A program made the translations under genes and the position numbers. Shown here piece by piece: positions 1-61,550 of a DNA stretch of 64,000 nt. The notes under the pieces are model-generated. The model saw only the letters and a list, made by a program, of their open reading frames with translations. It was not told where the DNA came from and did not search any database. Location: positions 21,660 to 85,659 of the IMG/VR virus record IMGVR_UViG_3300025674_000024; one strand, 5' to 3'. Numbering within the stretch: position 1 is the stretch's first letter; each line of letters opens with the position of its first letter. The stretch is from a virus.

Positions 1-384
1 TGTAAGATCACCGATTTTGTCCTCCTCCTCATCCTCTCCTTCCTCCTCAACCATCTGAGCGGCGAGAGCTAGGAGCTCCTCGTCGGAAAGGTCGGAGAGG
101 TCGATGTCTTCCTCGATCTCATCCTCGTTCTCAGAACGGAGAGCGGAGAGAAGGTCTTCCTGACTCTGCTTGGTGTCCATGTAGTCTCCCTTTCCGTCGG
201 GATACTTCCACAGACCCGTCTTGTCGAGCCAGTCCGCTTTGAAGGGTGCGGTCTCCAACCCGAGTGTGTCACTACCGATCTTAACACCGGCGGTTTCCAC
301 ATCCTCAGCTTGGGAGAGTTGGTTAGAGTAGGCTTCCCTCAGTTGGTCGTAGGCCTCCTGAGAGAATTGACCGAAGCCTGACAT
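1..384 (-). CDS. Acidic protein with effector-array-type leader (partial; runs off the window)
   Basis: Not in the ORF track. Manual translation from ATG 384 gives MSGFGQFSQEAYDQLREAYSNQ...EEEGEDEEEDKIGDLT with no stop to position 1. GGGTAAAA motif 27 nt upstream. Leader resembles the G-x-F-S-x-E-A leaders of neighbouring genes. Confidence 0.8.
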   Translation of the reverse strand, partial: MSGFGQFSQEAYDQLREAYSNQLSQAEDVETAGVKIGSDTLGLETAPFKADWLDKTGLWKYPDGKGDYMDTKQSQEDLLSALRSENEDEIEEDIDLSDLSDEELLALAAQMVEEEGEDEEEDKIGDLT

Positions 385-442
385 GTCGTTGTCCTAGACG
401 TACCTGAGTGTTTTACCCAGCCAGTTTGGACATTGTCATTCC

Positions 443-604
443 TTAGAGGTAGGCTGCGGCGAGAGCTTCTTCTTTCGTGACCTGCCCGCGGCGCTGCATC
501 TCCTCGGCGAGGTCCAAGAGACGCTCGGCCTCTTCGTTCTTGCCTTGGAAGATGAGTTCCTTACGCTTAGCAATAAGGTCGAAGTACTTTGATTTGGATG
601 CCAT
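443..604 (-). CDS. 53-aa small protein directly after the kinase gene (candidate cognate inhibitor)
   Basis: Manual translation MASKSKYFDLIAKRKELIFQGKNEEAERLLDLAEEMQRRGQVTKEEALAAAYL*; starts 2 nt after the kinase stop. Confidence 0.7.
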   Translation of the reverse strand: MASKSKYFDLIAKRKELIFQGKNEEAERLLDLAEEMQRRGQVTKEEALAAAYL

Positions 605-606
605 GA

Positions 607-2322
607 TTAGATCCCGTCGTAAAGTTCGTTGATGTACCGTTCTGCGTCTTGGTCAGTCATCCTACCAAAGATCCTGTTAATTCCGTCCATGGAAGTGCGG
701 ATCTCCGCATTGACTCTGACTCCGAAGTCTTCCTCCATCTTGTCTCTCACTTTCTGAGAGTTGGACACGAAGCGTTGGACAGAGCGAGTGTTGTAGTCCT
801 TAACCCGCATACGGTCCGCTTGCCAGTCACGGCCATTGGTCGTTCCGAGAGCCTCAATGAGAGCTGCTTTAGGACTAGTCTGAGCGAGACCGAAGTCCAC
901 GAGCCCGCCCTTGCCAGTGCTCTTATCGTAGAAGAAGTTCCCGCCGTGCATGTCGTTGTGAGCGACGCCGCGAGTGTGGATCGCTTTGCGTACGCGGAGA
1001 TACTCGTCAGTCGCCGCTTCTTTCTCCTTAGAAGTCATCTGCCAGCGTTGGTCACCGTACGGCTCTCCCGCCATGCGAGACATACCAAGGTAGCCCGAGG
1101 CTTCCTTTACGTGACCACCTAAACCCCCCATCACTATCTTAGCCTTCCCAGAGACCGTGGCTCCGTGTAGAGTTGGCGTCACACCGCTTCCCTCAAGCTT
1201 TTTGATTGCAGCGGCTTCAAACTCTCCAATCTTCCCTTGCTTCGTGACTCCCGGAGGAGGACCCTCGGTCAGCTTCACTCGACCCATAGCGCCTTGGCCG
1301 ATGAGCTGTCCTGGACCAGACATGTCTTTCTTCGGGTCATAACCTTTAATTCCTTGCGGGATGTCAAAGCTTGTCTTCTCACCCACAGCTTTACCTCTTT
1401 TCGCTCTCCCTCCAGCACCCTTGGGAAAAGCACTGCTAGACACGCCTCTTTTACGAAGCTCACCTTCCACTCTCTTTCGCTGGTAAGCGTTAAGCTTCTC
1501 CTCCTTAAGGATTCGCATAAGCTCGGGAGTACGAGCGCCCTGGAGAAGCTTCTTGTTAACAACCATCGCTTTCTTAGGCGGGAGTGTTGAAAGTTTAGCA
1601 GCGGCTTTAGCGGCTTTAGCTTTGGTAACATCACCTGCTCGAGCTATCTTTTTAAGATCCTGCTGCATCGCTCTTTCAATGGAGCCGTAGAGTTTCTTCG
1701 CTACAGGATCCTTGGCTTCTTCCTTGGCCTTGCGAACTCGAGCCAAGCCCTTTTGCATTTCTTGAATCTTATTCTCTATGGCCAGTGTCCCTTCACCCTT
1801 AGGCTTAGGGGGAGTAGGGGGCGCCTCTCCCAGCACTCTCCTCACCATCTCTCGGCGAGCGGCGAGACCGCGAGACCCGGCCGCGAGCTGTTCACGCTCG
1901 AGAGACCGCTTTCCAAGCTCTTCCAGCGGACGGTCCTTGGGCTTTTGCTGTTGATCCTCGTCCTTAGGCTTTAACCTCTCTCCGAGGCGACGAGCGGCGG
2001 ACTTAAGCGGAGCACCTTTCTTAACGATCTTGGCACCGTACTTCTCACGGACCGCATCCGCTACGGACTTCACATCTGCTTGCTTCAGGCCTCTTTCCTT
2101 GGCCTTCTTCGCGATTGCGGGCATGCCCTCTCCGGGCTTCACAGAGATAGGAGTTCCTTTGCGGCATTGTCCCTGAGTGCCGTACACGCTTCCATCGCGA
2201 CGTTGGCACAGTTGCGCAAACTCGAAAGAGTCGTACTCTCCCTCGCTGAATTCTTCTACGAGAGAGTCTTTAACATACGAAAGAAGTTCTTCGTCGAACT
2301 CCCCGTGTTGCGAAAGCTTCAT
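607..2322 (-). CDS. CQRxDG-module protein with C-terminal Ser/Thr-kinase-like domain
   Basis: N-terminal CQRRDGSVYGTQGQCRKG; Lys-rich linker; kinase motifs IGQGAMGRV (Gly loop), VTK, HNDMHGGN (catalytic loop), DFG. Confidence 0.85.
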   Translation of the reverse strand: MKLSQHGEFDEELLSYVKDSLVEEFSEGEYDSFEFAQLCQRRDGSVYGTQGQCRKGTPISVKPGEGMPAIAKKAKERGLKQADVKSVADAVREKYGAKIVKKGAPLKSAARRLGERLKPKDEDQQQKPKDRPLEELGKRSLEREQLAAGSRGLAARREMVRRVLGEAPPTPPKPKGEGTLAIENKIQEMQKGLARVRKAKEEAKDPVAKKLYGSIERAMQQDLKKIARAGDVTKAKAAKAAAKLSTLPPKKAMVVNKKLLQGARTPELMRILKEEKLNAYQRKRVEGELRKRGVSSSAFPKGAGGRAKRGKAVGEKTSFDIPQGIKGYDPKKDMSGPGQLIGQGAMGRVKLTEGPPPGVTKQGKIGEFEAAAIKKLEGSGVTPTLHGATVSGKAKIVMGGLGGHVKEASGYLGMSRMAGEPYGDQRWQMTSKEKEAATDEYLRVRKAIHTRGVAHNDMHGGNFFYDKSTGKGGLVDFGLAQTSPKAALIEALGTTNGRDWQADRMRVKDYNTRSVQRFVSNSQKVRDKMEEDFGVRVNAEIRTSMDGINRIFGRMTDQDAERYINELYDGI

Positions 2323-41994: not shown

Positions 41995-42805
41995 TTCTTC
42001 CTCCGTGCCGCCCGCTTAGTCTCCTCGTTCTGCTTCTCGACGAACTCCGATTGGATCCTCGCCATGAGAAGAACTTTGGACACAGGCTGATCTTCCAACC
42101 ACTCGACCGACGAGTCCCATCTCTGCTTACACAAGTGAAAGGCGAGCTCCAACCACTTGTCTACGTGCATCACACGATCGTTGAGAAGCTCGGGTCCCAT
42201 CCAGTCGGAGAGAGGCTTCACGTACGAAGCGGGAATCACGGAAAGATCATCCTCAGTCAGTCCTCCTAGTCTCATTATGAGAAGAAGAGAGAGGTGAGGC
42301 TGAGTGATGTCGGGATAGTCGTTGTTTATGAGGCTGAAGAAGTAGAAGTCTTTAGGCTTGAGTTCCCTGAACTGCAAAACGAGGCGACCCGCTAGAGTCA
42401 CCTTGTAAGTGAAGTCCTCGTTAGAGACCGCCTTTAGAAGTTTGGGTCCTCTTCGTCCTCTTCATCGGTCCCACCCGCTTTAGCAAGTAGTTCCGTGACC
42501 TTCTTCAGGTCTTTCATCTTGAGCTTCTGAAGCTCATCGAATGTAATCTTACCACTCCCAACGGACAGTCGGGCTGCGAGCTTCAGAGAACGTTCCATGT
42601 CTCCGATGCCGCCGAGTGTCTTCTCGAGGTAGAGAAGATCGCTGGCCATCATCTCGCGGAGGACGACCTCCTTTCCAGATGACAGAGTCGCGAAGTATGT
42701 TTCTTCGGCGGAGTCGAGAGAGGATTGAGGACGGTTAGCACCTTCCGCGAGTTCTTCAGCGGACTTGCGCATGACACGCACGCCTGACTTCTTCTCTTCT
42801 TCCAT
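41991..42805 (-). CDS. Tail assembly chaperone pair (42434..42805 plus a -1 frameshift extension to 41991)
   Basis: The first ORF ends GAC CCA AAC TTC TAA with slippery C CCA AAC at 42440-42446. The -1 frame is open into ORF 41991..42401. Confidence 0.75.
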
Positions 42806-42843
42806 GGTTTATGTTGTAACCTGTAGTAACTTTTTACCCCAGC

Positions 42844-43734
42844 TCAGTTGACGTTGACCTTGATCGCTGGGTGGGGATCATAGTCGGTTAGGATGAAGTC
42901 GTCCAAGGTTAGATCCTTAAGAGTGCGGCGTTGGAGCCATTCATCAGAGAGTCTCGCTTGGCACTCATCCTTCCACGGGAGTTTGAGCATCTGCTCAACG
43001 AGATGGTAGCAGTTCTCATAAATATGAGAATTTGCGCTTGGCATATAGACAAACCGAGCGGTCTTGTCCGTGCAAGCCGCAACAACTTTGAGCATGATCG
43101 CGTAGCGAGCGATGTCAAGAGGGAAACCGACAACCATGTCGTTTGACCGAGCGGGAACCATCAGGTCTAGCCAACCATCCTTCGCGGGCATGAACTGCAT
43201 ACCGATGTGACACGGCGGGCAAGCCGGATCGATAACGGTCGGATTGTGAGTGATGACGGTCGCTTGCCGAGTGTTCGGGAAGTGAGTCAGGGTGATGATG
43301 GCGTCCTGCAGCTGGTCAACAGACCGATCGGTCTCCAAGACCTCGTTGGGCATCTCCATCCCAGAGGCGGACGGTGGCCACTGACGCCACTGACGACAGT
43401 AAGCGGAGGCGCCAAGCTCACCGTCCTTGTCGGCTAGGAAGTCCCAGAAGTGCTTGGCGGGGCCCAGCGCATCGACGTTGGTATTGAACCCAATGTCGAA
43501 GAGGAATTCCCTACAGGTGTTCTTCCAGGGCAGTTTGCGGAGGCGAGTCAGAGGGAATCCCTCACGGAGATCCACTCTCACGGAACAACCAAAAGCTGCT
43601 CGAGTCTCGCCGTTACGACCTTCAAAAGTATCTCCCGCCTCCATCAGAGCACGGAGATAGTTGGCGTAGATGCGATCCCAATTCCCAGAGATGATGGACT
43701 TTCCGTTGAATGAAAGAGAGTGTCCGGCGTTCAT
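42844..43734 (-). CDS. Thymidylate synthase family enzyme, probable dCMP (hydroxy)methylase
   Basis: DLREGFPL, PPCH (catalytic Cys), RSND, HIYENC; GFPLDIARY in place of ThyA's G-x-PFNIASY. Confidence 0.8.
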   Translation of the reverse strand: MNAGHSLSFNGKSIISGNWDRIYANYLRALMEAGDTFEGRNGETRAAFGCSVRVDLREGFPLTRLRKLPWKNTCREFLFDIGFNTNVDALGPAKHFWDFLADKDGELGASAYCRQWRQWPPSASGMEMPNEVLETDRSVDQLQDAIITLTHFPNTRQATVITHNPTVIDPACPPCHIGMQFMPAKDGWLDLMVPARSNDMVVGFPLDIARYAIMLKVVAACTDKTARFVYMPSANSHIYENCYHLVEQMLKLPWKDECQARLSDEWLQRRTLKDLTLDDFILTDYDPHPAIKVNVN

Positions 43735-43943
43735 GAGTAGATTTTGGCGGATGTTTCGTGGTAGTATTTCTCGAACTCCTCGTCCTTGATGCCGGGAGGA
43801 AGCTTTACGTACATAGCAGCCGCAGTGCGAAGACTCTCCTGAGCCATCGCTCTGTGGCCCATGTCGTAGCGATCGTTCGCATCATCGACCCAGTCTCTCG
43901 CGTAGATGAGGAGGGCTTCGGGGTCTTGGCGCGGAGGAATCAT
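43731..43943 (-). CDS. Hypothetical protein
   Basis: Closely spaced ORF between the kinase and TS genes. Confidence 0.55.
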   Translation of the reverse strand: MIPPRQDPEALLIYARDWVDDANDRYDMGHRAMAQESLRTAAAMYVKLPPGIKDEEFEKYYHETSAKIYS

Positions 43944-43944
43944 C

Positions 43945-44514
43945 TTAGGACTTTCTCAGAGCTTCGGCACAGCGAGAAAGGACTGCGCGAGCGGTGACGT
44001 TCTCGTTCATAATCTGAACGTTCGGGAACATAGTGATGTTCTCGTAGAAGTTGAGAATCTGCTCCGTGTACACTTGGTGCTCTTGCATACGGGCGATGTA
44101 CTCATCACGGATGAGCCACGGCGCGGCTTCGGGATTCTCCGCTCTTACTTCCTCGATGTGGAGCGGAGCGGACCAGTGCCAAGGACGGAACAGCCCAACG
44201 TGGACCACCGACCCGTCTGTAGCATCCGCAAGCTCGATCTCGAAATCGATGACATCCTCGAAGTGACCGGCATTGCGGCGACGATGCTGCTCGAGGATGT
44301 AGCTGCAAGGATAAGCTCGGTCAAAGATCGCGTAGGTCTTCTTGGAGTTCTTCCAAGTCGCGATGTCCTCTCGGTAGAAGTCGAAGATGTTCTCTTGGTC
44401 CTTGGGCGGAGGGCCGTGGTGAGCGATATAGCAGTCGCCGGCAAGTTCCTGAGTCATGACGTCAATCAGAGTTGACTTGCCAACTCGGTCTGGGCCTGAT
44501 ACGATGATGAGCAT
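43945..44514 (-). CDS. dNMP (thymidylate-type) kinase
   Basis: IIVSGPDRVGKSTLI P-loop; IFDR motif. Confidence 0.8.
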   Translation of the reverse strand: MLIIVSGPDRVGKSTLIDVMTQELAGDCYIAHHGPPPKDQENIFDFYREDIATWKNSKKTYAIFDRAYPCSYILEQHRRRNAGHFEDVIDFEIELADATDGSVVHVGLFRPWHWSAPLHIEEVRAENPEAAPWLIRDEYIARMQEHQVYTEQILNFYENITMFPNVQIMNENVTARAVLSRCAEALRKS

Positions 44515-44907
44515 GGTTGGTTCTGTACAGACGGATTGTAGTGGGGAGGAGATGATAGTATTCTCAGCTAGCGGGAGATGATGTAGCCTAGGATGAGGCT
44601 GTCGTCAAGGTAGTCTAAGTTGAGGATTACTTCCACTGAGGACATCATTCTCCTTTCTTTGCTGTCAAAAAAGTGCATCCTAGCAAGGCTCTGCTTATTT
44701 CCTGGGAGTGGTTCCAGAGTGTAGAAGCGGGCTTTCTTTTTGCTCATGAGAGGGGAAGGGAGAGTTGGACGGGATGGGATGGGGAACAGCGGACTTTATC
44801 TAGGAGAAGCCTCTTCATTGTATCCTGATCAACTTCGGAGATCTCACAGGCTGTGATAAGGTTGCAGTGTCCCGAATAGAGAGCCGTCAGGGCCCTTTCT
44901 ATCTTTG

Positions 44908-47832
44908 TCAAAGCAGTCCCTTCTCGATCAGGTCTATGCGGGTCTTGAGCTTCTTGACCCACCCGTTCTCCGCCATCTGCAGCATAGAGTACTCTGACCC
45001 GTTGGGCTCTTCCGACCCGTCTGGGTTGGATGGAGTCACAGTGCACTCACTGGGAGACTTACGGAGCCGGTCGTCAATAGCGACCGAGGAGAAGAAAGCT
45101 CGAGAGAGCGGTACGTCGTTGATCCCCACACCCGCTTGGAACCTTGCCCACGAGTAAAGGTGGGCCATCTGGAAAGTTACGGAGAAGACCTCCGCATACT
45201 TCTCAGGGACCATGAACCACATCTCATCGTGAATGGACAGGATGAACTGCGCTGGGATCTTGTACTTGCGAGCCAACCAGTGAGTCGCGGTGAGAATCAC
45301 AGCGAGCATCTCCGCACCCGACGACTGGATTGTCCAGTTAATGCGACCTGTGTGAAAGTCATCTCCCACCGCAGAGGGACGCAGAGCGGTCGAGATCTTC
45401 GTCCCGAGGCAAGGCAGAGTGGGAACCTTGGCCCTTAGCGCGATGCCCTCCATGAAGTTATAGCAGCCGCTGTCGCTGCCTCCTTCGTAGTACCCGTCTG
45501 GGCTCTTACGACCTTTCTTGAAAGCCAAAGCTTTGGTGCCGTACCGACGGAGCTCCTCGGATCCGCGATCCTTGTACTTCTTCTGGATGGTGTTAGCTAT
45601 GGTTCTCACGCCCGCGCCGTACAGCATAGCGAAACCTACACCCTTAGCCGTGTCTCGGTCAATGCCGATTGCACTCGCGAGCTTAGTGTGCGCGTCGGTA
45701 CCCTTCTCTTTGGACCCAGCGAGGACGGTATGCGCCATCGGAGATGCACCCACGAATCCTCCCTCCCAGGAGTCTGCATAGATGCTTGCGATCTGCAGCT
45801 CCTGACCGTCAAAGTCAGCGCCTACGATCTTCCAGCCCGGAGGACACTGGACCCGAGTCTTGAGCTCAGTGCCGATTCTCCAGTTCTTCGTGGAGCACAT
45901 GGTGACCATGAGGGATTCCACAGTCCGGCGAGTCACAGTCCCGTGAGCGATGATCTCGGGCATTATCATGTTCCAAGCACCACCGTGAGGGTTCTCGACC
46001 TCTAGGAAGATGCGGTCCATGACACGCTTACGAACCGAAGTCCAGTAAGACGTGGCGTTAGCAATGTCGAGAGCGCGCTTAGCCTCGGGAATATCGCTGC
46101 TGAGCCGACCGTTCTCCATGTCCACGAGAAAGTCTTTGGACAACAGCACACCGACGTTCTCACCGGTACCCTTAGGATGAGGGATCTTCTGCAGCTTACC
46201 TTCAACGTCGCGGTAGCACCAACCGTCTCCCTTGATGTTCTCGATCGGAGACCCCTCCCACTTGAGCTTCAGCAGGAAGTGAGAGACCGTGGCTTTCGTC
46301 GTGACCTTCTTGTCAGAGTCCGTCAGGTACTCGGAAGCCCACTTTGGTTTGAAAGCGTACTTGCCTGTGTAAGACCGAGGTGTCCAAACTAATTGGGACA
46401 ACCAAGGATCTTTCTTAGCCCACTCGTCCGCATTGTGCCTCCACACGTGCTCTTGCTTATCAAACCCACGGAGAACGTCCGTGAACTTGACCGTCTTCTT
46501 GTGGCCAAGACTGGCAAGAGCTATGCAAGTCTCAGGATCTTCCTCGAAGAGCTTCTGGGCGGTGACAATGTCCTTATCCAGTTCTGTGTTCCACTCCGCT
46601 ACGTACTTTTGAATGAGAGAGCGACAGATGTCCGTCATCTCCTGAGCGTGAGCGTGAAACACTTCTTCAGTGTGAGAGATCCAATCCGACCACTGCGTGG
46701 AGATCGGGATGCGCGATCCGTTGAGGAAGTAGTGACCGGCAATCCCCACCTTTGAGGGAGTCGCGTTAAGGTACTTTGGCCAAAGGGCTTGGAAGAGCTC
46801 AGTCGTGTAGAAGGCGTCCTTCATCGCGTACTCGAGCAGGTCCCGACGATTTGCGAGTTGGTGCATCTCCGTGGCTTTCACGAAGACGTTTCGGATCTCC
46901 TTGTCGGCATCCTCCATGCGATGGACTTCCTCGCCGAAGTATTCCCTCACGGCCGCGACGTGGAAGTTGTAGACATTCACCAGGGCATTCGTGGAACCTT
47001 CGCTAGCCCATCTAGGACGGAACTGAAGTTTCTTCTTCTCTTCCTCGCTGAGTTCCTCGGGATCCTTGCCCGCGAGGACATAGAGCCACCTCTGGCCCGA
47101 CGCGAGGCCGGAGACCGCGACGTGAGCTGAGAGCGTGTCAAAGTAGAAGTTCTCCGGCTCGCTTTCAGTAAGCGTGTAGCCGTCACGAGCGCGAACGCGA
47201 TCATAGGAAATGTTATGACCGACAACAAAACTTCCTTTGCCAATAGGTATGAGGTCATACTGGGTCCATTCCTCTTGCGGTAGAGTTGGGTCGCACATCT
47301 CCGCTGCGAGCCATACATAAGAGGCCTTAGCAGAGAAGCAAGTACCAATCACTGGGAAAGCGCCTCCGACCACGAAGGTCTCAGTATCATACGTGAACGC
47401 TTTCTCGAGAGGATGCGGAACCTGCTCTGTGATAAACTTCTTCCCGTCCCACTCGTATCGGGTCCATCCGGGCTGGAAGATGAAGTCGTCGTACCCGGGG
47501 CACTTAGGAAGCTTTGCTTTGGAGAATTCTTCTGCTTTGGTAAGATACTCGTCAAGAAACTCTCCGGCCATGTGTTCGAAGTGATCTTTGATGTCGTTTC
47601 CCACAAGATCTGGGAACGGAAAATCACCGTCGTAGAGGTTCTCGGGATAGTCCACAGGAACTGGGACATCGAACCTACTTAAAAGCCGCCGCGACCGTTC
47701 GAGCGTGCTGCTCTTAACCGTCGGGCGGCTCAGGTTGCCGAAAAGCTTCTTATGAAGAAAATCGCTGAGGACGGGATAGCCGTGTTCGTTCTTCATAGAC
47801 GATGCAGTCATCCGATAAATTGTCGATTCCAT
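44908..47832 (-). CDS. Family A DNA polymerase, Pol-gamma-like, with 3'-5' exonuclease
   Basis: DTETF, VGHNISYDRVR, DTLSAHVAVSG, GTVTRRTVE, VGADFDGQEL, RDTAK...AMLYGAG, RINWTIQSSG, SIHDE. Confidence 0.92.
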   Translation of the reverse strand: MESTIYRMTASSMKNEHGYPVLSDFLHKKLFGNLSRPTVKSSTLERSRRLLSRFDVPVPVDYPENLYDGDFPFPDLVGNDIKDHFEHMAGEFLDEYLTKAEEFSKAKLPKCPGYDDFIFQPGWTRYEWDGKKFITEQVPHPLEKAFTYDTETFVVGGAFPVIGTCFSAKASYVWLAAEMCDPTLPQEEWTQYDLIPIGKGSFVVGHNISYDRVRARDGYTLTESEPENFYFDTLSAHVAVSGLASGQRWLYVLAGKDPEELSEEEKKKLQFRPRWASEGSTNALVNVYNFHVAAVREYFGEEVHRMEDADKEIRNVFVKATEMHQLANRRDLLEYAMKDAFYTTELFQALWPKYLNATPSKVGIAGHYFLNGSRIPISTQWSDWISHTEEVFHAHAQEMTDICRSLIQKYVAEWNTELDKDIVTAQKLFEEDPETCIALASLGHKKTVKFTDVLRGFDKQEHVWRHNADEWAKKDPWLSQLVWTPRSYTGKYAFKPKWASEYLTDSDKKVTTKATVSHFLLKLKWEGSPIENIKGDGWCYRDVEGKLQKIPHPKGTGENVGVLLSKDFLVDMENGRLSSDIPEAKRALDIANATSYWTSVRKRVMDRIFLEVENPHGGAWNMIMPEIIAHGTVTRRTVESLMVTMCSTKNWRIGTELKTRVQCPPGWKIVGADFDGQELQIASIYADSWEGGFVGASPMAHTVLAGSKEKGTDAHTKLASAIGIDRDTAKGVGFAMLYGAGVRTIANTIQKKYKDRGSEELRRYGTKALAFKKGRKSPDGYYEGGSDSGCYNFMEGIALRAKVPTLPCLGTKISTALRPSAVGDDFHTGRINWTIQSSGAEMLAVILTATHWLARKYKIPAQFILSIHDEMWFMVPEKYAEVFSVTFQMAHLYSWARFQAGVGINDVPLSRAFFSSVAIDDRLRKSPSECTVTPSNPDGSEEPNGSEYSMLQMAENGWVKKLKTRIDLIEKGLL

Positions 47833-49452: not shown

Positions 49453-49649
49453 TAAAGTAGTTTCTACAGATCAATGGTATTACAGAGGAGTCCCCGGTAA
49501 ATTGAGGAGCCAAGCGGCCAACTCAATCGCTTCTCTGCGACAAGTTCCCTGCTTCTGGTAAGTCAAGAACGAGATTTCGTATTCTCGTGCTCTTCCTTTC
49601 TCTCTCGCTAGCCCTAAAAAGTGGTGGTAGCGTTTGTCTAAGTCTTCTT

Positions 49650-50213
49650 TCATGGGGCTCGCTTAACCGAAGCTTTGAGAATGTCAGTAGCGAGATCCAC
49701 GATCTCCACGTTGAAGTCGTACACCTCCTCTGGGTCGGAGAGACGGTGGAACTGTCCGGAAAAGCAGTCTTTGGACAAATCTCTCAGGAAGGCGTTAGCG
49801 GGAGTAGGAGGCTCGCACAGAGCGATGTCGTCCTTAAGCTGAGGAGCCGCTTCCTCGATTGCTCTTACAAGACGCCCATAGATTGTTGACGTGATTGCGA
49901 ACTCCTCTTCGGTCTTGATCGAGGAGTAGCGCTCTTCGCCTTCGGTTGGGCGCAACTCCAACGCATTACCGTCTGGGAGAATGATCTGAATGGTATCATA
50001 TTCCTCCGGCTTTCGTCGGAAACAGACTTCGGGCGAGTTGAACGCTACCTCTTCCTGATTTTCCTCGTTAAGGATGTCGTGCTCGATGAGATCGTAGAAG
50101 GCGTTAGCGATCGTCTCCCAGTCTGGACCCTCGAACTCGGCCGCAATGGCCATGAACACCTTTGGGTTAGCTAGAAGCCGCGGGACGGGATAAATGATCT
50201 GTTGGGACTCCAT
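49650..50213 (-). CDS. Acidic hypothetical protein
   Basis: 187-aa ORF preceded by GAGGAG. Confidence 0.6.
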   Translation of the reverse strand: MESQQIIYPVPRLLANPKVFMAIAAEFEGPDWETIANAFYDLIEHDILNEENQEEVAFNSPEVCFRRKPEEYDTIQIILPDGNALELRPTEGEERYSSIKTEEEFAITSTIYGRLVRAIEEAAPQLKDDIALCEPPTPANAFLRDLSKDCFSGQFHRLSDPEEVYDFNVEIVDLATDILKASVKRAP

Positions 50214-50529: not shown

Positions 50530-51246
50530 TCAACTGGGATAAAAGGCAACACCCGTGATAACACCCGTGTAGTACGACCCAGTGTCGAGACGTACGACCT
50601 TACCCGTGGGAGTGTCGTAGATCATCGGCTTACCGTTCTTTTGGATCGTGTGACCGTGTACGGTAAGATGCTTCGTGCTGTAGCCGTTGATGTGACGGTC
50701 CCAGTAGAGGACCTCGGGATCTTGCTCATTGAGGGCTAGGCCAGGTGTGACTGACGCGTGAGTGACTAAGAGAGTGAGCATCTCTCCCTCCCATGACACA
50801 GGAGATGAGTGCTCATAGTATAGCGGAAGAGACTCGAGCCACCCCCACAGGCCATAGTTCTCCGCGTGCTCAAAGTCCTCCAGCTGCCCGCCGTTCATCC
50901 TCCAGAGGCGGTAGTCACCACCGATCGTTGGGATACCGCGGTCGACCTGTCTCTTAGCATCTAGGAGCATCTGCTCGTGGTTACCGCGGAGGACGTGCAC
51001 AGCAGACAGTCCCCACTTCTCCGGGTCTGTGTGAAGGTCGTGCACGAGTGATAGGACAGCTCCACCCTCTTCACCGCGGTCTATGAGATCCCCCACGAAC
51101 ACGAGCGTGCAGCCCGTGTTGATCACCTCCGAGAGAAGCTGCCTAAGACCGTGAGCGCAGCCGTGTATGTCGCCGATGACTACGACCGCGTCCTCGTCGA
51201 GAGGCTGATCGCGAAGTAAGATGCCTTGTTGTTTTAGCTTTTTCAT
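50530..51246 (-). CDS. Metallophosphoesterase (Ser/Thr protein phosphatase, NinI/PrpA-like)
   Basis: IGDIHG, GDLIDRG, LRGNHE, HAS, HGHT, LDTG. Confidence 0.9.
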   Translation of the reverse strand: MKKLKQQGILLRDQPLDEDAVVVIGDIHGCAHGLRQLLSEVINTGCTLVFVGDLIDRGEEGGAVLSLVHDLHTDPEKWGLSAVHVLRGNHEQMLLDAKRQVDRGIPTIGGDYRLWRMNGGQLEDFEHAENYGLWGWLESLPLYYEHSSPVSWEGEMLTLLVTHASVTPGLALNEQDPEVLYWDRHINGYSTKHLTVHGHTIQKNGKPMIYDTPTGKVVRLDTGSYYTGVITGVAFYPS

Positions 51247-51262
51247 ATTTCCATTATACACT

Positions 51263-53204: not shown

Positions 53205-53741
53205 TCACGCTGCGACGGCTTCTTTGGTCTCTACGGGAGCGTCAGCATCCCGCTTAGCTTGCAAATACTGCACCACGCGAGCGGGAGTGGAGGCCTCGTA
53301 GGGATCGTCAGAGGCGTTATCACGCTTGCCCTCTTCGACACCGGACCACTCCAGCTCGCCGTTGTTCACGACAATAGCGTAGCGCCAGCTGCGGATCGCA
53401 AAACCGAGGTTGGTCTTCTGCACAGCCATGCCTGCCGCGGCAGTGAAAGCACCGTTACCGTCGGGCAGAGCTTTGACTTTCTGGATGCCGAGGGACTCGA
53501 ACCACGCGTTCATCACAAAAGCGTCGTTCACCGACAGGCAGTACACTTCGTCGACATCGAGCGCGCGGATCTCGTCGTAGGCGGCCTCGAAGCCCGGGAG
53601 TTGCTGCTCGGTGCAGGTGGGAGTGAAGGCGCCGGGCAGTGAGAACACCACCACGCGCTTACCAGAAAAGATCTCCTTGGAGGTGCGAGTCTCGAACTCG
53701 CCGCCCTCGCGGAAGATGAAATCTACGATGGGAAGGTTCAT
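53205..53741 (-). CDS. Peroxiredoxin (PRX5/type II)
   Basis: SLPGAFTPTC, CLSVNDAFVMNAW, PDGNG.FT, RSWRYA. Confidence 0.95.
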   Translation of the reverse strand: MNLPIVDFIFREGGEFETRTSKEIFSGKRVVVFSLPGAFTPTCTEQQLPGFEAAYDEIRALDVDEVYCLSVNDAFVMNAWFESLGIQKVKALPDGNGAFTAAAGMAVQKTNLGFAIRSWRYAIVVNNGELEWSGVEEGKRDNASDDPYEASTPARVVQYLQAKRDADAPVETKEAVAA

Positions 53742-59113: not shown

Positions 59114-61105
59114 CTATACCACAACTTCCTCCGCTTTGGCAAGTTTGCTACCCTTGCCGTGCACGGGTCGAGCTTTGAGAGTCTTAGCGGAACAGACCTT
59201 AGGCTTCTTCCGCTTGGATTCGAACTTCAGCTCGTATGAGTCTGTGCCGATGTGGAGTAGTTCAGCGCCCTCAGGCAACCAACGCTTGCCCCTCGAGGTC
59301 GTTCGTAGCAGTTCATCCCACGGAATAATATTTCCAAAGATGCCCTCTGCAGATTTCCACACCGCGACAATTGGATCTTGAGGTAGATTCGTTGTTGAAC
59401 CTCTCAGGAGAACTTTCGTCGGAGAATCTGACAGTGGACCGCGATGTCGAGCGTTAACCTTATAGAAGTAGCCGTTGTTGCAGACGAAAACCATCTTTTG
59501 ATCGTCCGGGATCACAAAGTTGGCTCCGCGAGGTGCCTTGAGTTGTGTGAGAATACCCTTCTCCTCGTCGACCATGACGTAGCGGGGCTTTGGACCGCTC
59601 TGAGCGAGTTGGACTTTCCGTCCCTCGACCTTCACTGTCTCCACAGCGACCTCCTTGGGAGGATCTATGCCTTCGCTGCGACGAGCGTTCCCATGTCGCT
59701 CCGCGAGTTCCTCCACCTCACTAACAATGTACTCTCCGCGCTTTTTCTCCGAGGAAGTCAGAGAAATGATCTCCTTGATGCGCTTCTGCACATCCTTGGC
59801 TTCCTGTTGCAGCTGCTTGTCATCCAGCTTCGTCAATTGAGCAAGTCGCATGTCGAGGATGGCGTCCGCCTGCCTTTCCGTGTACTGCATCTTGACCAAG
59901 CGGGCTTTAGCATCAGCACGTTCCTTAGCGAGTCGGATCTGCGCGATGACCTCGTCGATCATCGTGATCGCGGTGATCAAGCCTTGGACCACCTCAAGCC
60001 TACCGCGTCGCTTCTCGAGTTCGGCTTTGAGAGAAGCTAAGAGGCGCTGGTCCCGCCATCCCGCCCAGCGGATGAGCATGTCGTGCGGCGCGAGCTGCAC
60101 CGGCTTCAAGTTGTCGATGACAAGATTCCGTGCGGAAAACTTCGTGTCAAGCGACGTGTTCTTGAAGATTTCAGCTCGAGCACGTGCTTCGTCGGCACTC
60201 GCCTTAAGAACGACCACTAGGCGGATCCCGCTGCGGTCCGTCTCGTCTCGGACGTCTGCGACCGTAGTGATTTTGCCTTTCTCAATCCCTTCTTTGATCT
60301 GATCCCCAACCTGCTCCGTGTTGGTGTGTAGAGGCAGGTTCGTGAACACGAGAGCGGTGCGCTTGGACTTCTTCCCGTAGTCGATCTGCTCGGAGGAGCA
60401 GTGGGCGCGCATGCGGACGGAGCCGACACCTGTGTTGAGGTATTCGACGAGACCTTCGTCCTTGACCACGTGGCATCCCGTAGGGAAGTCCGGAGCGAGA
60501 GAGTTCTTCGCCGTGATCATGTCATCATCAACAAGAGCTCGGAGAGCCTTGGCGACGCCGCGGAGGTTGTGAGTGGGGATCTTTGTAGCAAAGCCTACTC
60601 CAATCCCTTCCGCTCCGTTAAGCAAGATAAGAGGGACTCTAGCGTTTAGTTGCACCGGCTCCTGTAAGCTCCCGTCATAGTTAGGACGAGTGACCCAGGT
60701 ATCTGAGTCTTGAAGCAAAGCATCCCAGGCAAACTGGGAGATCTTTGACTCAGTATATCTCGGAGCAGCGGCGTTGTCCGTCGGAGACCCGCCGTTCCCA
60801 TGGATGTCAATAAGAGGGTGATTGTTGGTCCACCATGCGGCAGCCGTAACCATTGCGCCGTATGCACCGCCGTGAGGATGATACTTACCGGTGGTCTCGC
60901 CTTCAACACGAGCGCACTTCATATAGCGCCCGTCAGGACGAAGGTTAAGGGCCTTCATCGCGGCCATGATGCGCCTAGTGACCGGCTTTAAGCCGTCATA
61001 AAGATCTGGGATTGCCCGACCAACGAGCACAGCCATGCTGTACTCAAGGTACGCGGACTTCATCTCTTTAACGAGCCCTGCTTGGACAGTTGTTCCTTCA
61101 GTCAT
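59114..61105 (-). CDS. Type IIA topoisomerase subunit A (GyrA/ParC-like)
   Basis: RAIPD..DGLKPV.RR, GKYHPHG, AAAPRYTE (catalytic Tyr), GIGVGFAT.IP.HN, PDFPTG, QADAILDMRL..LT; start MTEG at 61105. Confidence 0.92.
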   Translation of the reverse strand: MTEGTTVQAGLVKEMKSAYLEYSMAVLVGRAIPDLYDGLKPVTRRIMAAMKALNLRPDGRYMKCARVEGETTGKYHPHGGAYGAMVTAAAWWTNNHPLIDIHGNGGSPTDNAAAPRYTESKISQFAWDALLQDSDTWVTRPNYDGSLQEPVQLNARVPLILLNGAEGIGVGFATKIPTHNLRGVAKALRALVDDDMITAKNSLAPDFPTGCHVVKDEGLVEYLNTGVGSVRMRAHCSSEQIDYGKKSKRTALVFTNLPLHTNTEQVGDQIKEGIEKGKITTVADVRDETDRSGIRLVVVLKASADEARARAEIFKNTSLDTKFSARNLVIDNLKPVQLAPHDMLIRWAGWRDQRLLASLKAELEKRRGRLEVVQGLITAITMIDEVIAQIRLAKERADAKARLVKMQYTERQADAILDMRLAQLTKLDDKQLQQEAKDVQKRIKEIISLTSSEKKRGEYIVSEVEELAERHGNARRSEGIDPPKEVAVETVKVEGRKVQLAQSGPKPRYVMVDEEKGILTQLKAPRGANFVIPDDQKMVFVCNNGYFYKVNARHRGPLSDSPTKVLLRGSTTNLPQDPIVAVWKSAEGIFGNIIPWDELLRTTSRGKRWLPEGAELLHIGTDSYELKFESKRKKPKVCSAKTLKARPVHGKGSKLAKAEEVVV

Positions 61106-61550
61106 TACGTGTTGAAATGAAACGACCTCGGCTATCACGCAGCCGTTCTGAGAATCTCCCTGCGTCGTAAGCCGCTTGGATGTTTTCTGAGTTGTTGACC
61201 CACTCTAAGTTGGACACATGATTGTTTTGCTTATCATGGTCTACGTGGTGAACAATCGGCTTAGCCTCCGCTAAGGGGACCCAGGCACGAGCTGTGACTC
61301 GATGAGAAAGATCTCCAGTAATCAGCCTGATGTAGCCTTTTGTGTTAGGAGATCCTTTGACCCACTTAGCTCGTCGAAACTCATGTGTTGTGATGAACAC
61401 GGAGTTCCAACGGTCCCAAACTTGCTTCTCCGTTAGAAAAGCGGGTTCTGCTACTCGGCCATCCAGAGTAGACCAAAGAGAGGTTTCTTGGTCCAAAGCC
61501 CATGGTCCAGGGTCCAAGTCAAGAAGACTGTCCGTGTCGTAGAGTCTCAT
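61098..61550 (-). CDS. HNH endonuclease
   Basis: HRVTA.AW...VHHVDHDKQNNHVSNLEWV..SEN. Confidence 0.85.
   Translation of the reverse strand: MRLYDTDSLLDLDPGPWALDQETSLWSTLDGRVAEPAFLTEKQVWDRWNSVFITTHEFRRAKWVKGSPNTKGYIRLITGDLSHRVTARAWVPLAEAKPIVHHVDHDKQNNHVSNLEWVNNSENIQAAYDAGRFSERLRDSRGRFISTRND

Follow-up and report, generated by a model that had tools for sequence, protein, structure and literature searches.

We analyzed a 64,000-nucleotide stretch of viral DNA (the window), which comprises bases 21660-85659 of the 85,659-bp IMG/VR virus record IMGVR_UViG_3300025674_000024 (CheckV completeness, 38%). The minus strand, which holds almost all genes of the window, carries side by side the genes for a P-loop kinase, a 70-residue protein, and a homologue of the thymidylate synthase (TS) ThyA. 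These three genes probably make up a pre-replicative cytosine-modification cassette, the most likely product of which is 5-methyl-deoxycytidine monophosphate (5-methyl-dCMP). The genes of the locus, including two small open reading frames (ORFs), are as follows.

42844..43734, minus strand: ThyA-family enzyme, 296 aa, predicted dCMP C5-(methyl)transferase (Pfam, alignment, and tree)
43731..43943, minus strand: conserved 70-aa ORF between the kinase and the ThyA homologue, no assigned family (80% identical in relative L004)
43945..44514, minus strand: P-loop nucleotide kinase, 189 aa (GPDRVGKST; FDRAYPCSY), predicted to phosphorylate modified dCMP (P-loop and fold)
44568..44747, minus strand: 59-aa ORF between the kinase and the polymerase, cassette membership uncertain (54% conserved in L004)
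44908..47832, minus strand: Pol-gamma-like family A DNA polymerase, 974 aa, directly upstream of the cassette (PF18136, E=8.9e-58)

A first-pass annotation, made from the sequence alone, had placed a P-loop dNMP kinase two genes upstream of the ThyA homologue and a DNA polymerase nearby, and both were found there. The TAA stop codon of the kinase gene is 1 nt ahead of the ATG of the 70-aa ORF, the TGA of which overlaps the start codon of the ThyA homologue as ATGA. Therefore, the three genes are translationally coupled. The relative L004 has the same gene order as the window: polymerase, two small ORFs, kinase, 70-aa ORF, ThyA, and tail genes.

Active site and phylogeny of the ThyA homologue

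The ThyA homologue matched Pfam PF00303 (Thymidylat_synt) over profile positions 2-264 of 266 (E=1.8e-50; 172 bits against a cut-off of 24.3) and PHROG 160 'thymidylate synthase.' Its best solved relatives were all TSs, with 6auj at the top (E=1e-30). The ORF translation contains VPARSNDMVVGFPLDIARYAIML and VPARSNDMVVGFPLDIARY, and its RSNDMVVGFPLDIARY motif puts an aspartate at the position of E. coli Asn177. The first-pass annotation had pointed out this aspartate, and two alignments confirmed it. HMMER set 'parsndmvvgfpldiarya' opposite 'qrsadvflgvpfniasya' of 6auj, with Asp207 in the Asn177 column, and a MAFFT alignment with E. coli ThyA (NC_000913) gave the same placement.

We aligned the window protein with reference enzymes (E. 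coli ThyA, RB69 td, T4 gp42, the RB69 gp42-homologue [5-hydroxy-dCMP synthase], SPO1 gp29, and the PaMx74 ThyA homologue), the ThyA of cyanophage S-TIM5, and 120 database relatives. These relatives came from a first search, which returned at least 297 protein clusters at an E value of ≤1e-10. E. coli positions 58, 80, 94, 143, 146, 147, 165, 168, 169, 177, and 205 read E-W-Y-C-C-H-A-N-D-D-N in the window protein, in S-TIM5, and in 120 of 120 relatives. Therefore, Asp177 is not a chance substitution. The window protein retains the catalytic cysteine (in PCH) along with Glu58, Trp80, Tyr94, Arg166, Ser167, Asp169, His207, and Tyr209. Cys146 and the nucleotide-binding residues Arg21, Arg166, Ser167, His207, and Tyr209 are conserved in it and in all 120 relatives. 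Both residues expected of a canonical dUMP-methylating TS, Asn177 and Gln165, are replaced (by Asp177 and Ala165). Gln165, which is present in E. coli ThyA and RB69 td, is also replaced (by M or L) in the dCMP enzymes T4 gp42, RB69 gp48, and PaMx74. Position 143, three residues before the catalytic cysteine (Cys-3), is Cys172 in the window enzyme, where it forms part of a CPPCH loop, and is a cysteine in 120 of 120 relatives. The C-terminal tail ...HPAIKVNVN aligns to ...HPGIKAPVAI of E. coli, and ...[IVLM][KR]xxVN is conserved in the family. The window protein and its close family also have Ser110-Ala111-Tyr112, which at the level of sequence resembles the Ser/Thr-x-Tyr loop of T4-type hydroxymethylases; S-TIM5 has Gly-x-Tyr there.

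Published residue rules allow these features to be read. Asp177 selects dCMP, and an Asn-to-Asp change switches a TS to dCMP (Liu & Santi 1992 and Hardy & Nalivaika 1992, as cited in PMC8670742 and PMC13326640). An Asp or Glu at position 143 marks hydroxymethylases and activates the substrate water (PMC6400193 and PMC13326640). The T4 dCMP hydroxymethylase (dCH) is reported to be inactive as D145N, and it is without the C-terminal tail with which a TS closes its active site for hydride transfer (PMC6400193). Finally, D169N marks 5-hydroxy-dCMP synthases (PMC13326640). Our alignment reproduced these rules in the references (T4 gp42, D143/T147/D177; RB69, E143/N169/D177; SPO1, D143/N177). Of the T4-type features, the window enzyme has Asp177 (Asp179 of T4 dCH) but neither the acidic Cys-3 nor the tail-less C terminus. 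The D169N of the RB69/DLP3-type 5-hydroxy-dCMP synthases is absent, with Asp169 kept in 120 of 120 relatives. Asp177 with a nonacidic Cys-3 is the Xp12/PaMx74 pattern (position 143 of PaMx74 is Asn or Leu, depending on the alignment). By these rules, the ThyA homologue is predicted to be a dCMP enzyme and not one of the 5-hydroxy type. The cysteine at Cys-3 and the conserved TS-like tail argue against a T4-type hydroxymethylase and favor 5-methyl-dCMP, so methyl is a better guess than hydroxymethyl for the product.

A search of 1.84 billion database representatives returned 6752 matches at an E value of ≤0.001, just 23 of them at ≤1e-30. Among the best 150 matches, 140 were at least 230 aa long, and these had either Asn177 (113 proteins) or Asp177 (27 proteins). 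In a FastTree tree of 154 rows, the window enzyme, S-TIM5, and 23 other rows formed one clade (support, 99) with Asp177 in 25 of 25. Position 143 in this clade was Cys, Ile, Gln, Gly, or Val and never Leu, Asp, or Glu. The rest of the tree consisted of canonical ThyAs, 115 with Asn177 and 10 scattered ones with Asp177. PaMx74, T4 gp42, RB69 gp48, and SPO1 gp29 were on separate long branches outside the clade, with their exact placement unsure, and no characterized enzyme among the references included in the tree fell inside it. The first-pass annotation had proposed a phylogeny with ThyA and the dCMP (hydroxy)methylases; in ours, the window enzyme belongs to an all-Asp177 clade of its own, apart from the canonical ThyA, T4, RB69, SPO1, and PaMx74 enzymes.

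The public names of clade members are 'thymidylate synthase' (S-TIM5 and JGI records). Because the ThyA homologue passed the cut-off of NCBIfam TIGR03284 (127.7 versus 108.35 bits), pipelines will keep annotating it in this way. It was far below the cut-offs of the other seven NCBIfam TS models (e.g., 150.6 versus 327 bits). The S-TIM5 'ThyA' (YP_007006147) shares the clade and the 11-position signature at 39% identity, and S-TIM5 also has its own ThyX, a dCMP deaminase, and a kinase homologue. It differs in that the kinase is 36 kb from ThyA, no homologue of the 70-aa ORF is beside ThyA, and the loop is Gly-x-Tyr. In the literature searched, we found neither a described function of S-TIM5-type ThyA nor a report of cytosine modification in these cyanophages; supplementary lists of validated ThyA homologues, which possibly include clade members, were outside that search. 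The 70-aa ORF had no match in Pfam, PHROG, or NCBIfam, fell only into unnamed Atlas clusters, and was not similar to the neighbor of S-TIM5 ThyA.

ThyX and the partner kinase

The contig that contains the window also encodes ThyX, at bases 326-1132 (minus strand; G000:C1, L023:326-1132), 20.5 kb before the window start. This protein matched PF02511 (E=1.4e-43) and has RHRSFCFQQFSGRY, which we take to be the ThyX motif. A phage-encoded ThyX makes the ThyA homologue redundant for dTMP. ThyX and an Asp177-type ThyA homologue (ThyA-Asp) also occur together in S-TIM5 and in records G006 (150 kb, with terminal repeats), G018 (159 kb, rated 100% complete), G019, G024, and G028.

The nearest cultured relative by polymerase DNA (66%) is the Synechococcus phage S-CBWM1, which has the same order from tail-completion genes to polymerase with nothing in between. 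Its complete 139-kb genome has ThyX and dCMP deaminase genes, and profile searches of that genome found neither a ThyA nor a kinase homologue. The ThyA profile also had no match in 30 of 31 further Pol-gamma-type records, including complete genomes of 279 and 277 kb.

The N terminus of the kinase, MLIIVSGPDRVGKST, holds the P-loop. Its profile matches were weak: AAA_14 was below its cut-off, phrog_761 'thymidylate kinase' (E=2.4e-6) covered residues 1-65, and there was no above-cut-off match in Pfam and nothing significant in NCBIfam. We built a structure model from 50 homologues (pLDDT, 92.8). Foldseek related it to PPK2 (E=4e-5; TM, 0.59-0.65) and to M. tuberculosis thymidylate kinase (TMPK; E=1.7e-4), with an overall TM of 0.55-0.65. 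Judged by this model, the protein is a P-loop NMP-kinase fold, PPK2/thymidylate-kinase-like and outside named families.

A profile of the kinase family matched 17 of 18 records with a close ThyA homologue, and the exception has its ThyA at the very end of a contig. It also matched 13 of 21 TIM5-like records. These were all 13 of the records of at least 61 kb, and the eight negatives are fragments of less than 50 kb. The kinase and ThyA genes are within ~320 bp of each other in the close group (six records with both coordinates) and 33-36 kb apart in TIM5-like phages. That the two genes are inherited together in a second lineage even though they are not neighbors there is good evidence for joint action of their products, and we infer that the kinase substrate is modified dCMP. 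Three records (G011, G012, and G015, the last labeled a provirus by IMG/VR) have two kinase-family copies, one beside ThyA and the other a 187-aa paralogue 14-16 kb away.

The sequencing-run data were Logan contigs, which are silent on base modification, transcript ends, and expression level. Runs containing the window stretch carried metagenome labels (aquatic, freshwater, marine, estuary, and marsh). In two studies, metatranscriptome contigs had pieces of the ThyA-homologue and kinase genes at ≥99% identity, which is presence in RNA libraries rather than proven transcription; regions that no RNA contig covers say nothing either way. A scan of 42300-45200 for promoters and terminators gave 3 matches versus 1.2 ± 1.2 expected, which is not above chance.

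Avoidance of palindromes

If the DNA is protected at its cytosines, selection against restriction sites is expected to be relaxed. We counted 6-bp palindromes containing C/G and compared them with a maximal-order Markov expectation. S-CBWM1 avoids such palindromes strongly. The median observed/expected ratio (O/E) was 0.74, and 46% of the palindromes were below 0.7, versus 1% of non-palindromic words. Examples (observed versus expected, both strands) are GGGCCC (2 versus 35.9), CGGCCG (2 versus 21.7), GCGCGC (2 versus 20.4), and CGCGCG (0 versus 16.1). The fraction of palindromes below an O/E of 0.7 was 13% in the window's contig and 17% in G006.

We extended the comparison to 14 ThyA-Asp records and 14 Pol-gamma-type relatives without the gene, S-CBWM1 included, using ≤60 kb per record. 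The summed O/E was 0.82-0.94 (median, 0.91) with ThyA-Asp and 0.73-0.88 (median, 0.79) without it (Mann-Whitney p ~2e-5; p=0.003 in the subset with a GC of 0.49-0.57). Each of the two positive lineages alone differed from the negatives (p=0.0001 and 0.002), and the median for non-palindromic controls was 0.99-1.00 in every record. The contrast was only weak for 4-bp palindromes, and AT-only palindromes were too few to serve as an internal control. The shift goes in the predicted direction, with avoidance relaxed in the cassette-carrying lineages. This is supportive, not decisive.

Proposed pathway and competing explanations

The first-pass annotation had suggested pre-replicative synthesis of 5-methyl- or 5-hydroxymethyl-dCTP. 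The indirect tests described above (the Asp177 clade, ThyX, kinase co-occurrence, and palindromes) support this, although replacement of cytosine may be partial. On the sequence evidence, the virion DNA is likely to contain C5-modified dC. If it does, the modifying group is probably methyl; hydroxymethyl is a distinctly less likely candidate, and anything else is improbable. In the pathway that we infer, from substrate and product to kinase specificity, incorporation, and its extent, the ThyA homologue would bind dCMP via Asp207 (Asn177 of E. coli ThyA). Cys175 would attack C6, and the one-carbon unit of methylene-tetrahydrofolate would go to C5. The exocyclic methylene intermediate would most likely be reduced by hydride transfer to give 5-methyl-dCMP, because the TS-like closing tail, His147, Tyr94, and Asp169 are kept and there is no Cys-3 carboxylate to activate water. 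The partner kinase would then make the diphosphate and a host NDP kinase the triphosphate, which the Pol-gamma-like polymerase would have to accept and incorporate. The phage's own ThyX would supply dTMP, and the modified DNA would resist many type II restriction enzymes.

Parts of this pathway have known counterparts. In the dCMP methyltransferase pathway of Xp12/PaMx74 (Pamexvirus), 5-methylcytosine (5mC) replaces C. Synthesis there is likewise pre-replicative and at the mononucleotide level, and the PaMx74 sequence, which is the one that we compared, shares Asp177, a nonacidic Cys-3, and a retained C-terminal region with the window enzyme. However, PaMx74 has Pro at position 147 as well as a separate long branch. 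The Pamexvirus cluster comprises dihydrofolate reductase (DHFR), dCMP deaminase, ThyA, and nucleotide pyrophosphohydrolase, with no dedicated kinase named in the available text (PMC9206674). In contrast, the phage studied here has a kinase, the 70-aa ORF, and ThyX; DHFR and MazG were not found, and the deaminase is distant in relatives. T4 follows the same logic with gp42, gp1, and td, that is, a dCMP-specific ThyA homologue, a phage kinase, and a separate true TS (td in T4 and ThyX here). The similarity of the window kinase to known kinases is remote and PPK2/TMPK-like. T4 gp42 differs in that its Cys-3 residue is Asp, its residue 147 is Thr, and its C-terminal tail is missing (PMC6400193), and T4 has a dCTPase and glucosyltransferases, none of which were found in the scan of the window's contig. 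Engineered TSs, N177D in E. coli and N229D in L. casei, combine a TS-like site (His147, Tyr94, Asp169, and C-terminal tail) with Asp177, as the window enzyme does, and act as dCMP methylases according to citations in PMC8670742. Compared with N177D, the natural enzyme also has Q165A, L143C, C168N, D205N, and W83L. The N177D rule is already in use for virome mining (PMC8670742 and bioRxiv 10.1101/2024.12.05.627091). Therefore, cytosine modification by phage ThyA-Asp is known as a type of system, and the lineage described here is uncharacterized. The new elements are a naturally occurring clade that combines a TS-like site with a CPPCH loop, the unclassified kinase and small ORF, the co-presence of ThyX, and the occurrence in cyanophages.

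We scanned 83 of the 109 ORFs of the whole 85.7-kb contig with Pfam, and absences are weak because the contig is 38% of the genome. The first-pass annotation had noted that no glycosyltransferase was visible, and this held for the scanned ORFs, which also had no dUTPase or TET family. The 150-kb record G006, which has direct terminal repeats, was used as a whole-genome stand-in. The scan of this record covered 72 of 170 crude ORFs, together with one more near a PF18723 gene, and left out six ORFs that span locus borders and most opposite-strand ORFs. The matches included RNR, 2OG oxygenases, and psbA/psbD-type reaction-centre proteins, and among the scanned ORFs there was no dCTPase, glycosyltransferase, dUTPase, TET, or DHFR family. 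No dCMP deaminase was found on the window's contig. In complete relatives, a dCMP-deaminase-family protein is encoded 78-90 kb from ThyA, occurs with or without the cassette, and most likely feeds ThyX. MazG is within ~400 bp of dCMP deaminase in the jumbo Pol-gamma-type relatives G057, G058, G062, and G064, which are without ThyA-Asp, and nowhere else.

Several observations weigh against 5-methyl-dCMP synthesis for replication. His147 is kept, and MetaGPA found that position 147 differs in contigs with modified C (PMC8670742). Ser110-Ala111-Tyr112 of the close family matches the Ser-x-Tyr half of the hydroxymethylase signature. The proven methylase lineage, that of PaMx74 on its separate long branch, is not a near relative of the window enzyme. 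The palindrome contrast has just two independent positive lineages behind it and includes partial contigs, for which 'absent' stands for 'not detected,' and host differences in restriction load could account for it. Neither the window's contig nor any of 10 large cassette-positive records yielded a dCTPase/MazG/dUTPase-type gene (0 of 10 for MazG). Therefore, unmodified dCTP should compete, and C replacement may be partial; alternatively, an unrecognized protein or the polymerase itself may select modified dCTP. DHFR was not found in G000, S-TIM5, G001, or G002, whereas Pamexviruses with 5mC all encode it (PMC9206674). Because a reductive methylase oxidizes its folate, the lack of DHFR favors a hydroxymethylase.

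The explanation that competes best is a new type of dCMP hydroxymethylase, with 5-hydroxymethylcytosine in the DNA either bare or decorated by enzymes encoded in the missing 62% of the genome. We consider it unlikely. Asp177 is common to the window enzyme and T4 gp42, a hydroxymethylase regenerates tetrahydrofolate (PMC6400193), which fits the absent DHFR in S-TIM5 and the contigs, and the Ser110-x-Tyr112 of the close family is consistent with it. The changes from Leu143 to a small Cys and from Trp83 to Leu could admit water. However, none of the 25 rows of the clade has Asp or Glu at Cys-3, the T4 enzyme loses activity as D145N (PMC6400193), and the TS-type C-terminal tail is present and conserved. 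In addition, no glycosyl- or carbamoyltransferase family was found in the scanned ORFs of G000 or the 72 scanned ORFs of G006.

A PF18723 protein (5-hmdU DNA kinase helical domain, E=8e-21) might also fit a hydroxymethylase. It is encoded in two high-GC (65%) relatives, G006 (L066:18024-19202, plus strand) and G010 (C1:11319-12062), and the G006 gene is between those for a 2OG-Fe(II) oxygenase and an Rnl1-type RNA ligase. We rejected it as evidence of hydroxymethylation, since the protein lacks a P-loop, was detected in 2 of 46 records, and is encoded beside the RNA ligase, with no counterpart at the syntenic position in the window. An HhH-GPD glycosylase was found in 8 of 27 cassette-positive and 0 of 15 cassette-free records, and not in the window's contig. 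This distribution is suggestive of mismatch repair after deamination and does not separate methyl from hydroxymethyl. A 57-aa ORF in the window (49480-49653, minus strand) is 42% identical over 52 aa to the C-terminal end of a ~194-aa HhH-GPD frame in G002/L004 and seems to be a remnant of an HhH-GPD gene.

The invariant Cys172-Pro-Pro-Cys175, a CxxC motif that includes the catalytic cysteine, raises the doubtful idea that the enzymes of this clade modify dCMP under redox control or by a new chemistry. In the redox version, a Cys172-Cys175 disulfide may let modification run only in a reduced, illuminated cyanobacterial cell; a redoxin is encoded on the window's contig and a glutaredoxin in G006. 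In the chemical version, Cys172 may help to make an undescribed C5 product. Because no dCTPase was found, either version means that the Pol-gamma-like polymerase itself would have to select modified dCTP. The redoxin/AhpC-TSA family protein (PF08534, E=5.5e-26; window 53205-53741, minus strand) is relevant to this CxxC only.

Alternatively, dCMP methylation might be only a side route to dTMP of the kind suggested for Xp12-like phages, in which deamination of 5-methyl-dCMP or -dCTP yields dTMP or dTTP. The DNA would then contain little modified C. The complete relatives G006, G018, and S-TIM5 do encode a dCMP-deaminase-family protein, 5mC-selective deaminases of that family exist (bioRxiv 10.1101/2024.12.05.627091), and no dCTPase was found to enforce replacement. 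Even so, we regard this route as very improbable. ThyX in the same genomes makes a second route to dTMP unnecessary, and the route needs no dedicated kinase. The deaminase gene is 78-90 kb from the ThyA homologue, versus ≤3 kb in published cases, and is equally present in the cassette-free S-CBWM1, G057, G058, G062, and G064. The relaxed palindrome avoidance also argues for protected DNA.

There is very little chance of another C5 derivative, either 5-hydroxy-dCMP as in RB69/DLP3 or an undescribed product involving Cys172. Flavin-dependent 5-hydroxylation by ThyA homologues shows that unexpected chemistry occurs (PMC13326640), and the invariant CPPCH loop has no characterized counterpart among the aligned references. 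However, the diagnostic D169N is absent, with Asp169 in 120 of 120 relatives, the folate-site residues and C-terminal tail are TS-like, and the cysteine is not essential, because other members of the clade have Ile, Val, Gln, or Gly in its place at position 143. Finally, an ordinary dUMP-methylating TS with an unusual residue, as the public annotations, the TIGR03284 match, and the all-TS best PDB relatives would have it, deserves hardly any credence, because Asn177, Gln165, and Leu143 are replaced in every member, ThyX is already present, the scores are far under the cut-offs of seven other NCBIfam TS models, and the gene is linked to a kinase that ThyA-less relatives lack.

If 5-methyl-dCMP synthesis by the cassette is correct, there would be modified cytosine in a widespread group of aquatic cyanophages, which includes TIM5-like phages and the Pol-gamma-type lineage (freshwater, estuarine, and marine runs). 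This would affect virome recovery and sequencing, escape from host restriction, and the annotation of 'thymidylate synthase' genes. The clade would also be a source of a naturally dCMP-specific enzyme whose site is TS-like and of a compact unclassified kinase, both of which could be used to make modified DNA. Because S-TIM5 has been cultured, a direct test is possible.

Three other genes of the window were assigned to families. A calcineurin-like phosphoesterase (PF00149, E=6.6e-12) is encoded at 50530-51261 (minus strand). Its best NCBIfam look-alikes are an ApaH-type bis(5'-nucleosyl)-tetraphosphatase and a Ser/Thr phosphatase, all far under cut-off, and it may conceivably hydrolyze nucleotides. 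A gyrase/topoisomerase IV subunit A-like protein (PF00521, E=6.8e-111) is encoded at 59114-61138 (minus strand). An HNH endonuclease ORF (PF13392) at 61098-61550 (minus strand) overlaps the gyrase A-like gene and precedes it upstream.

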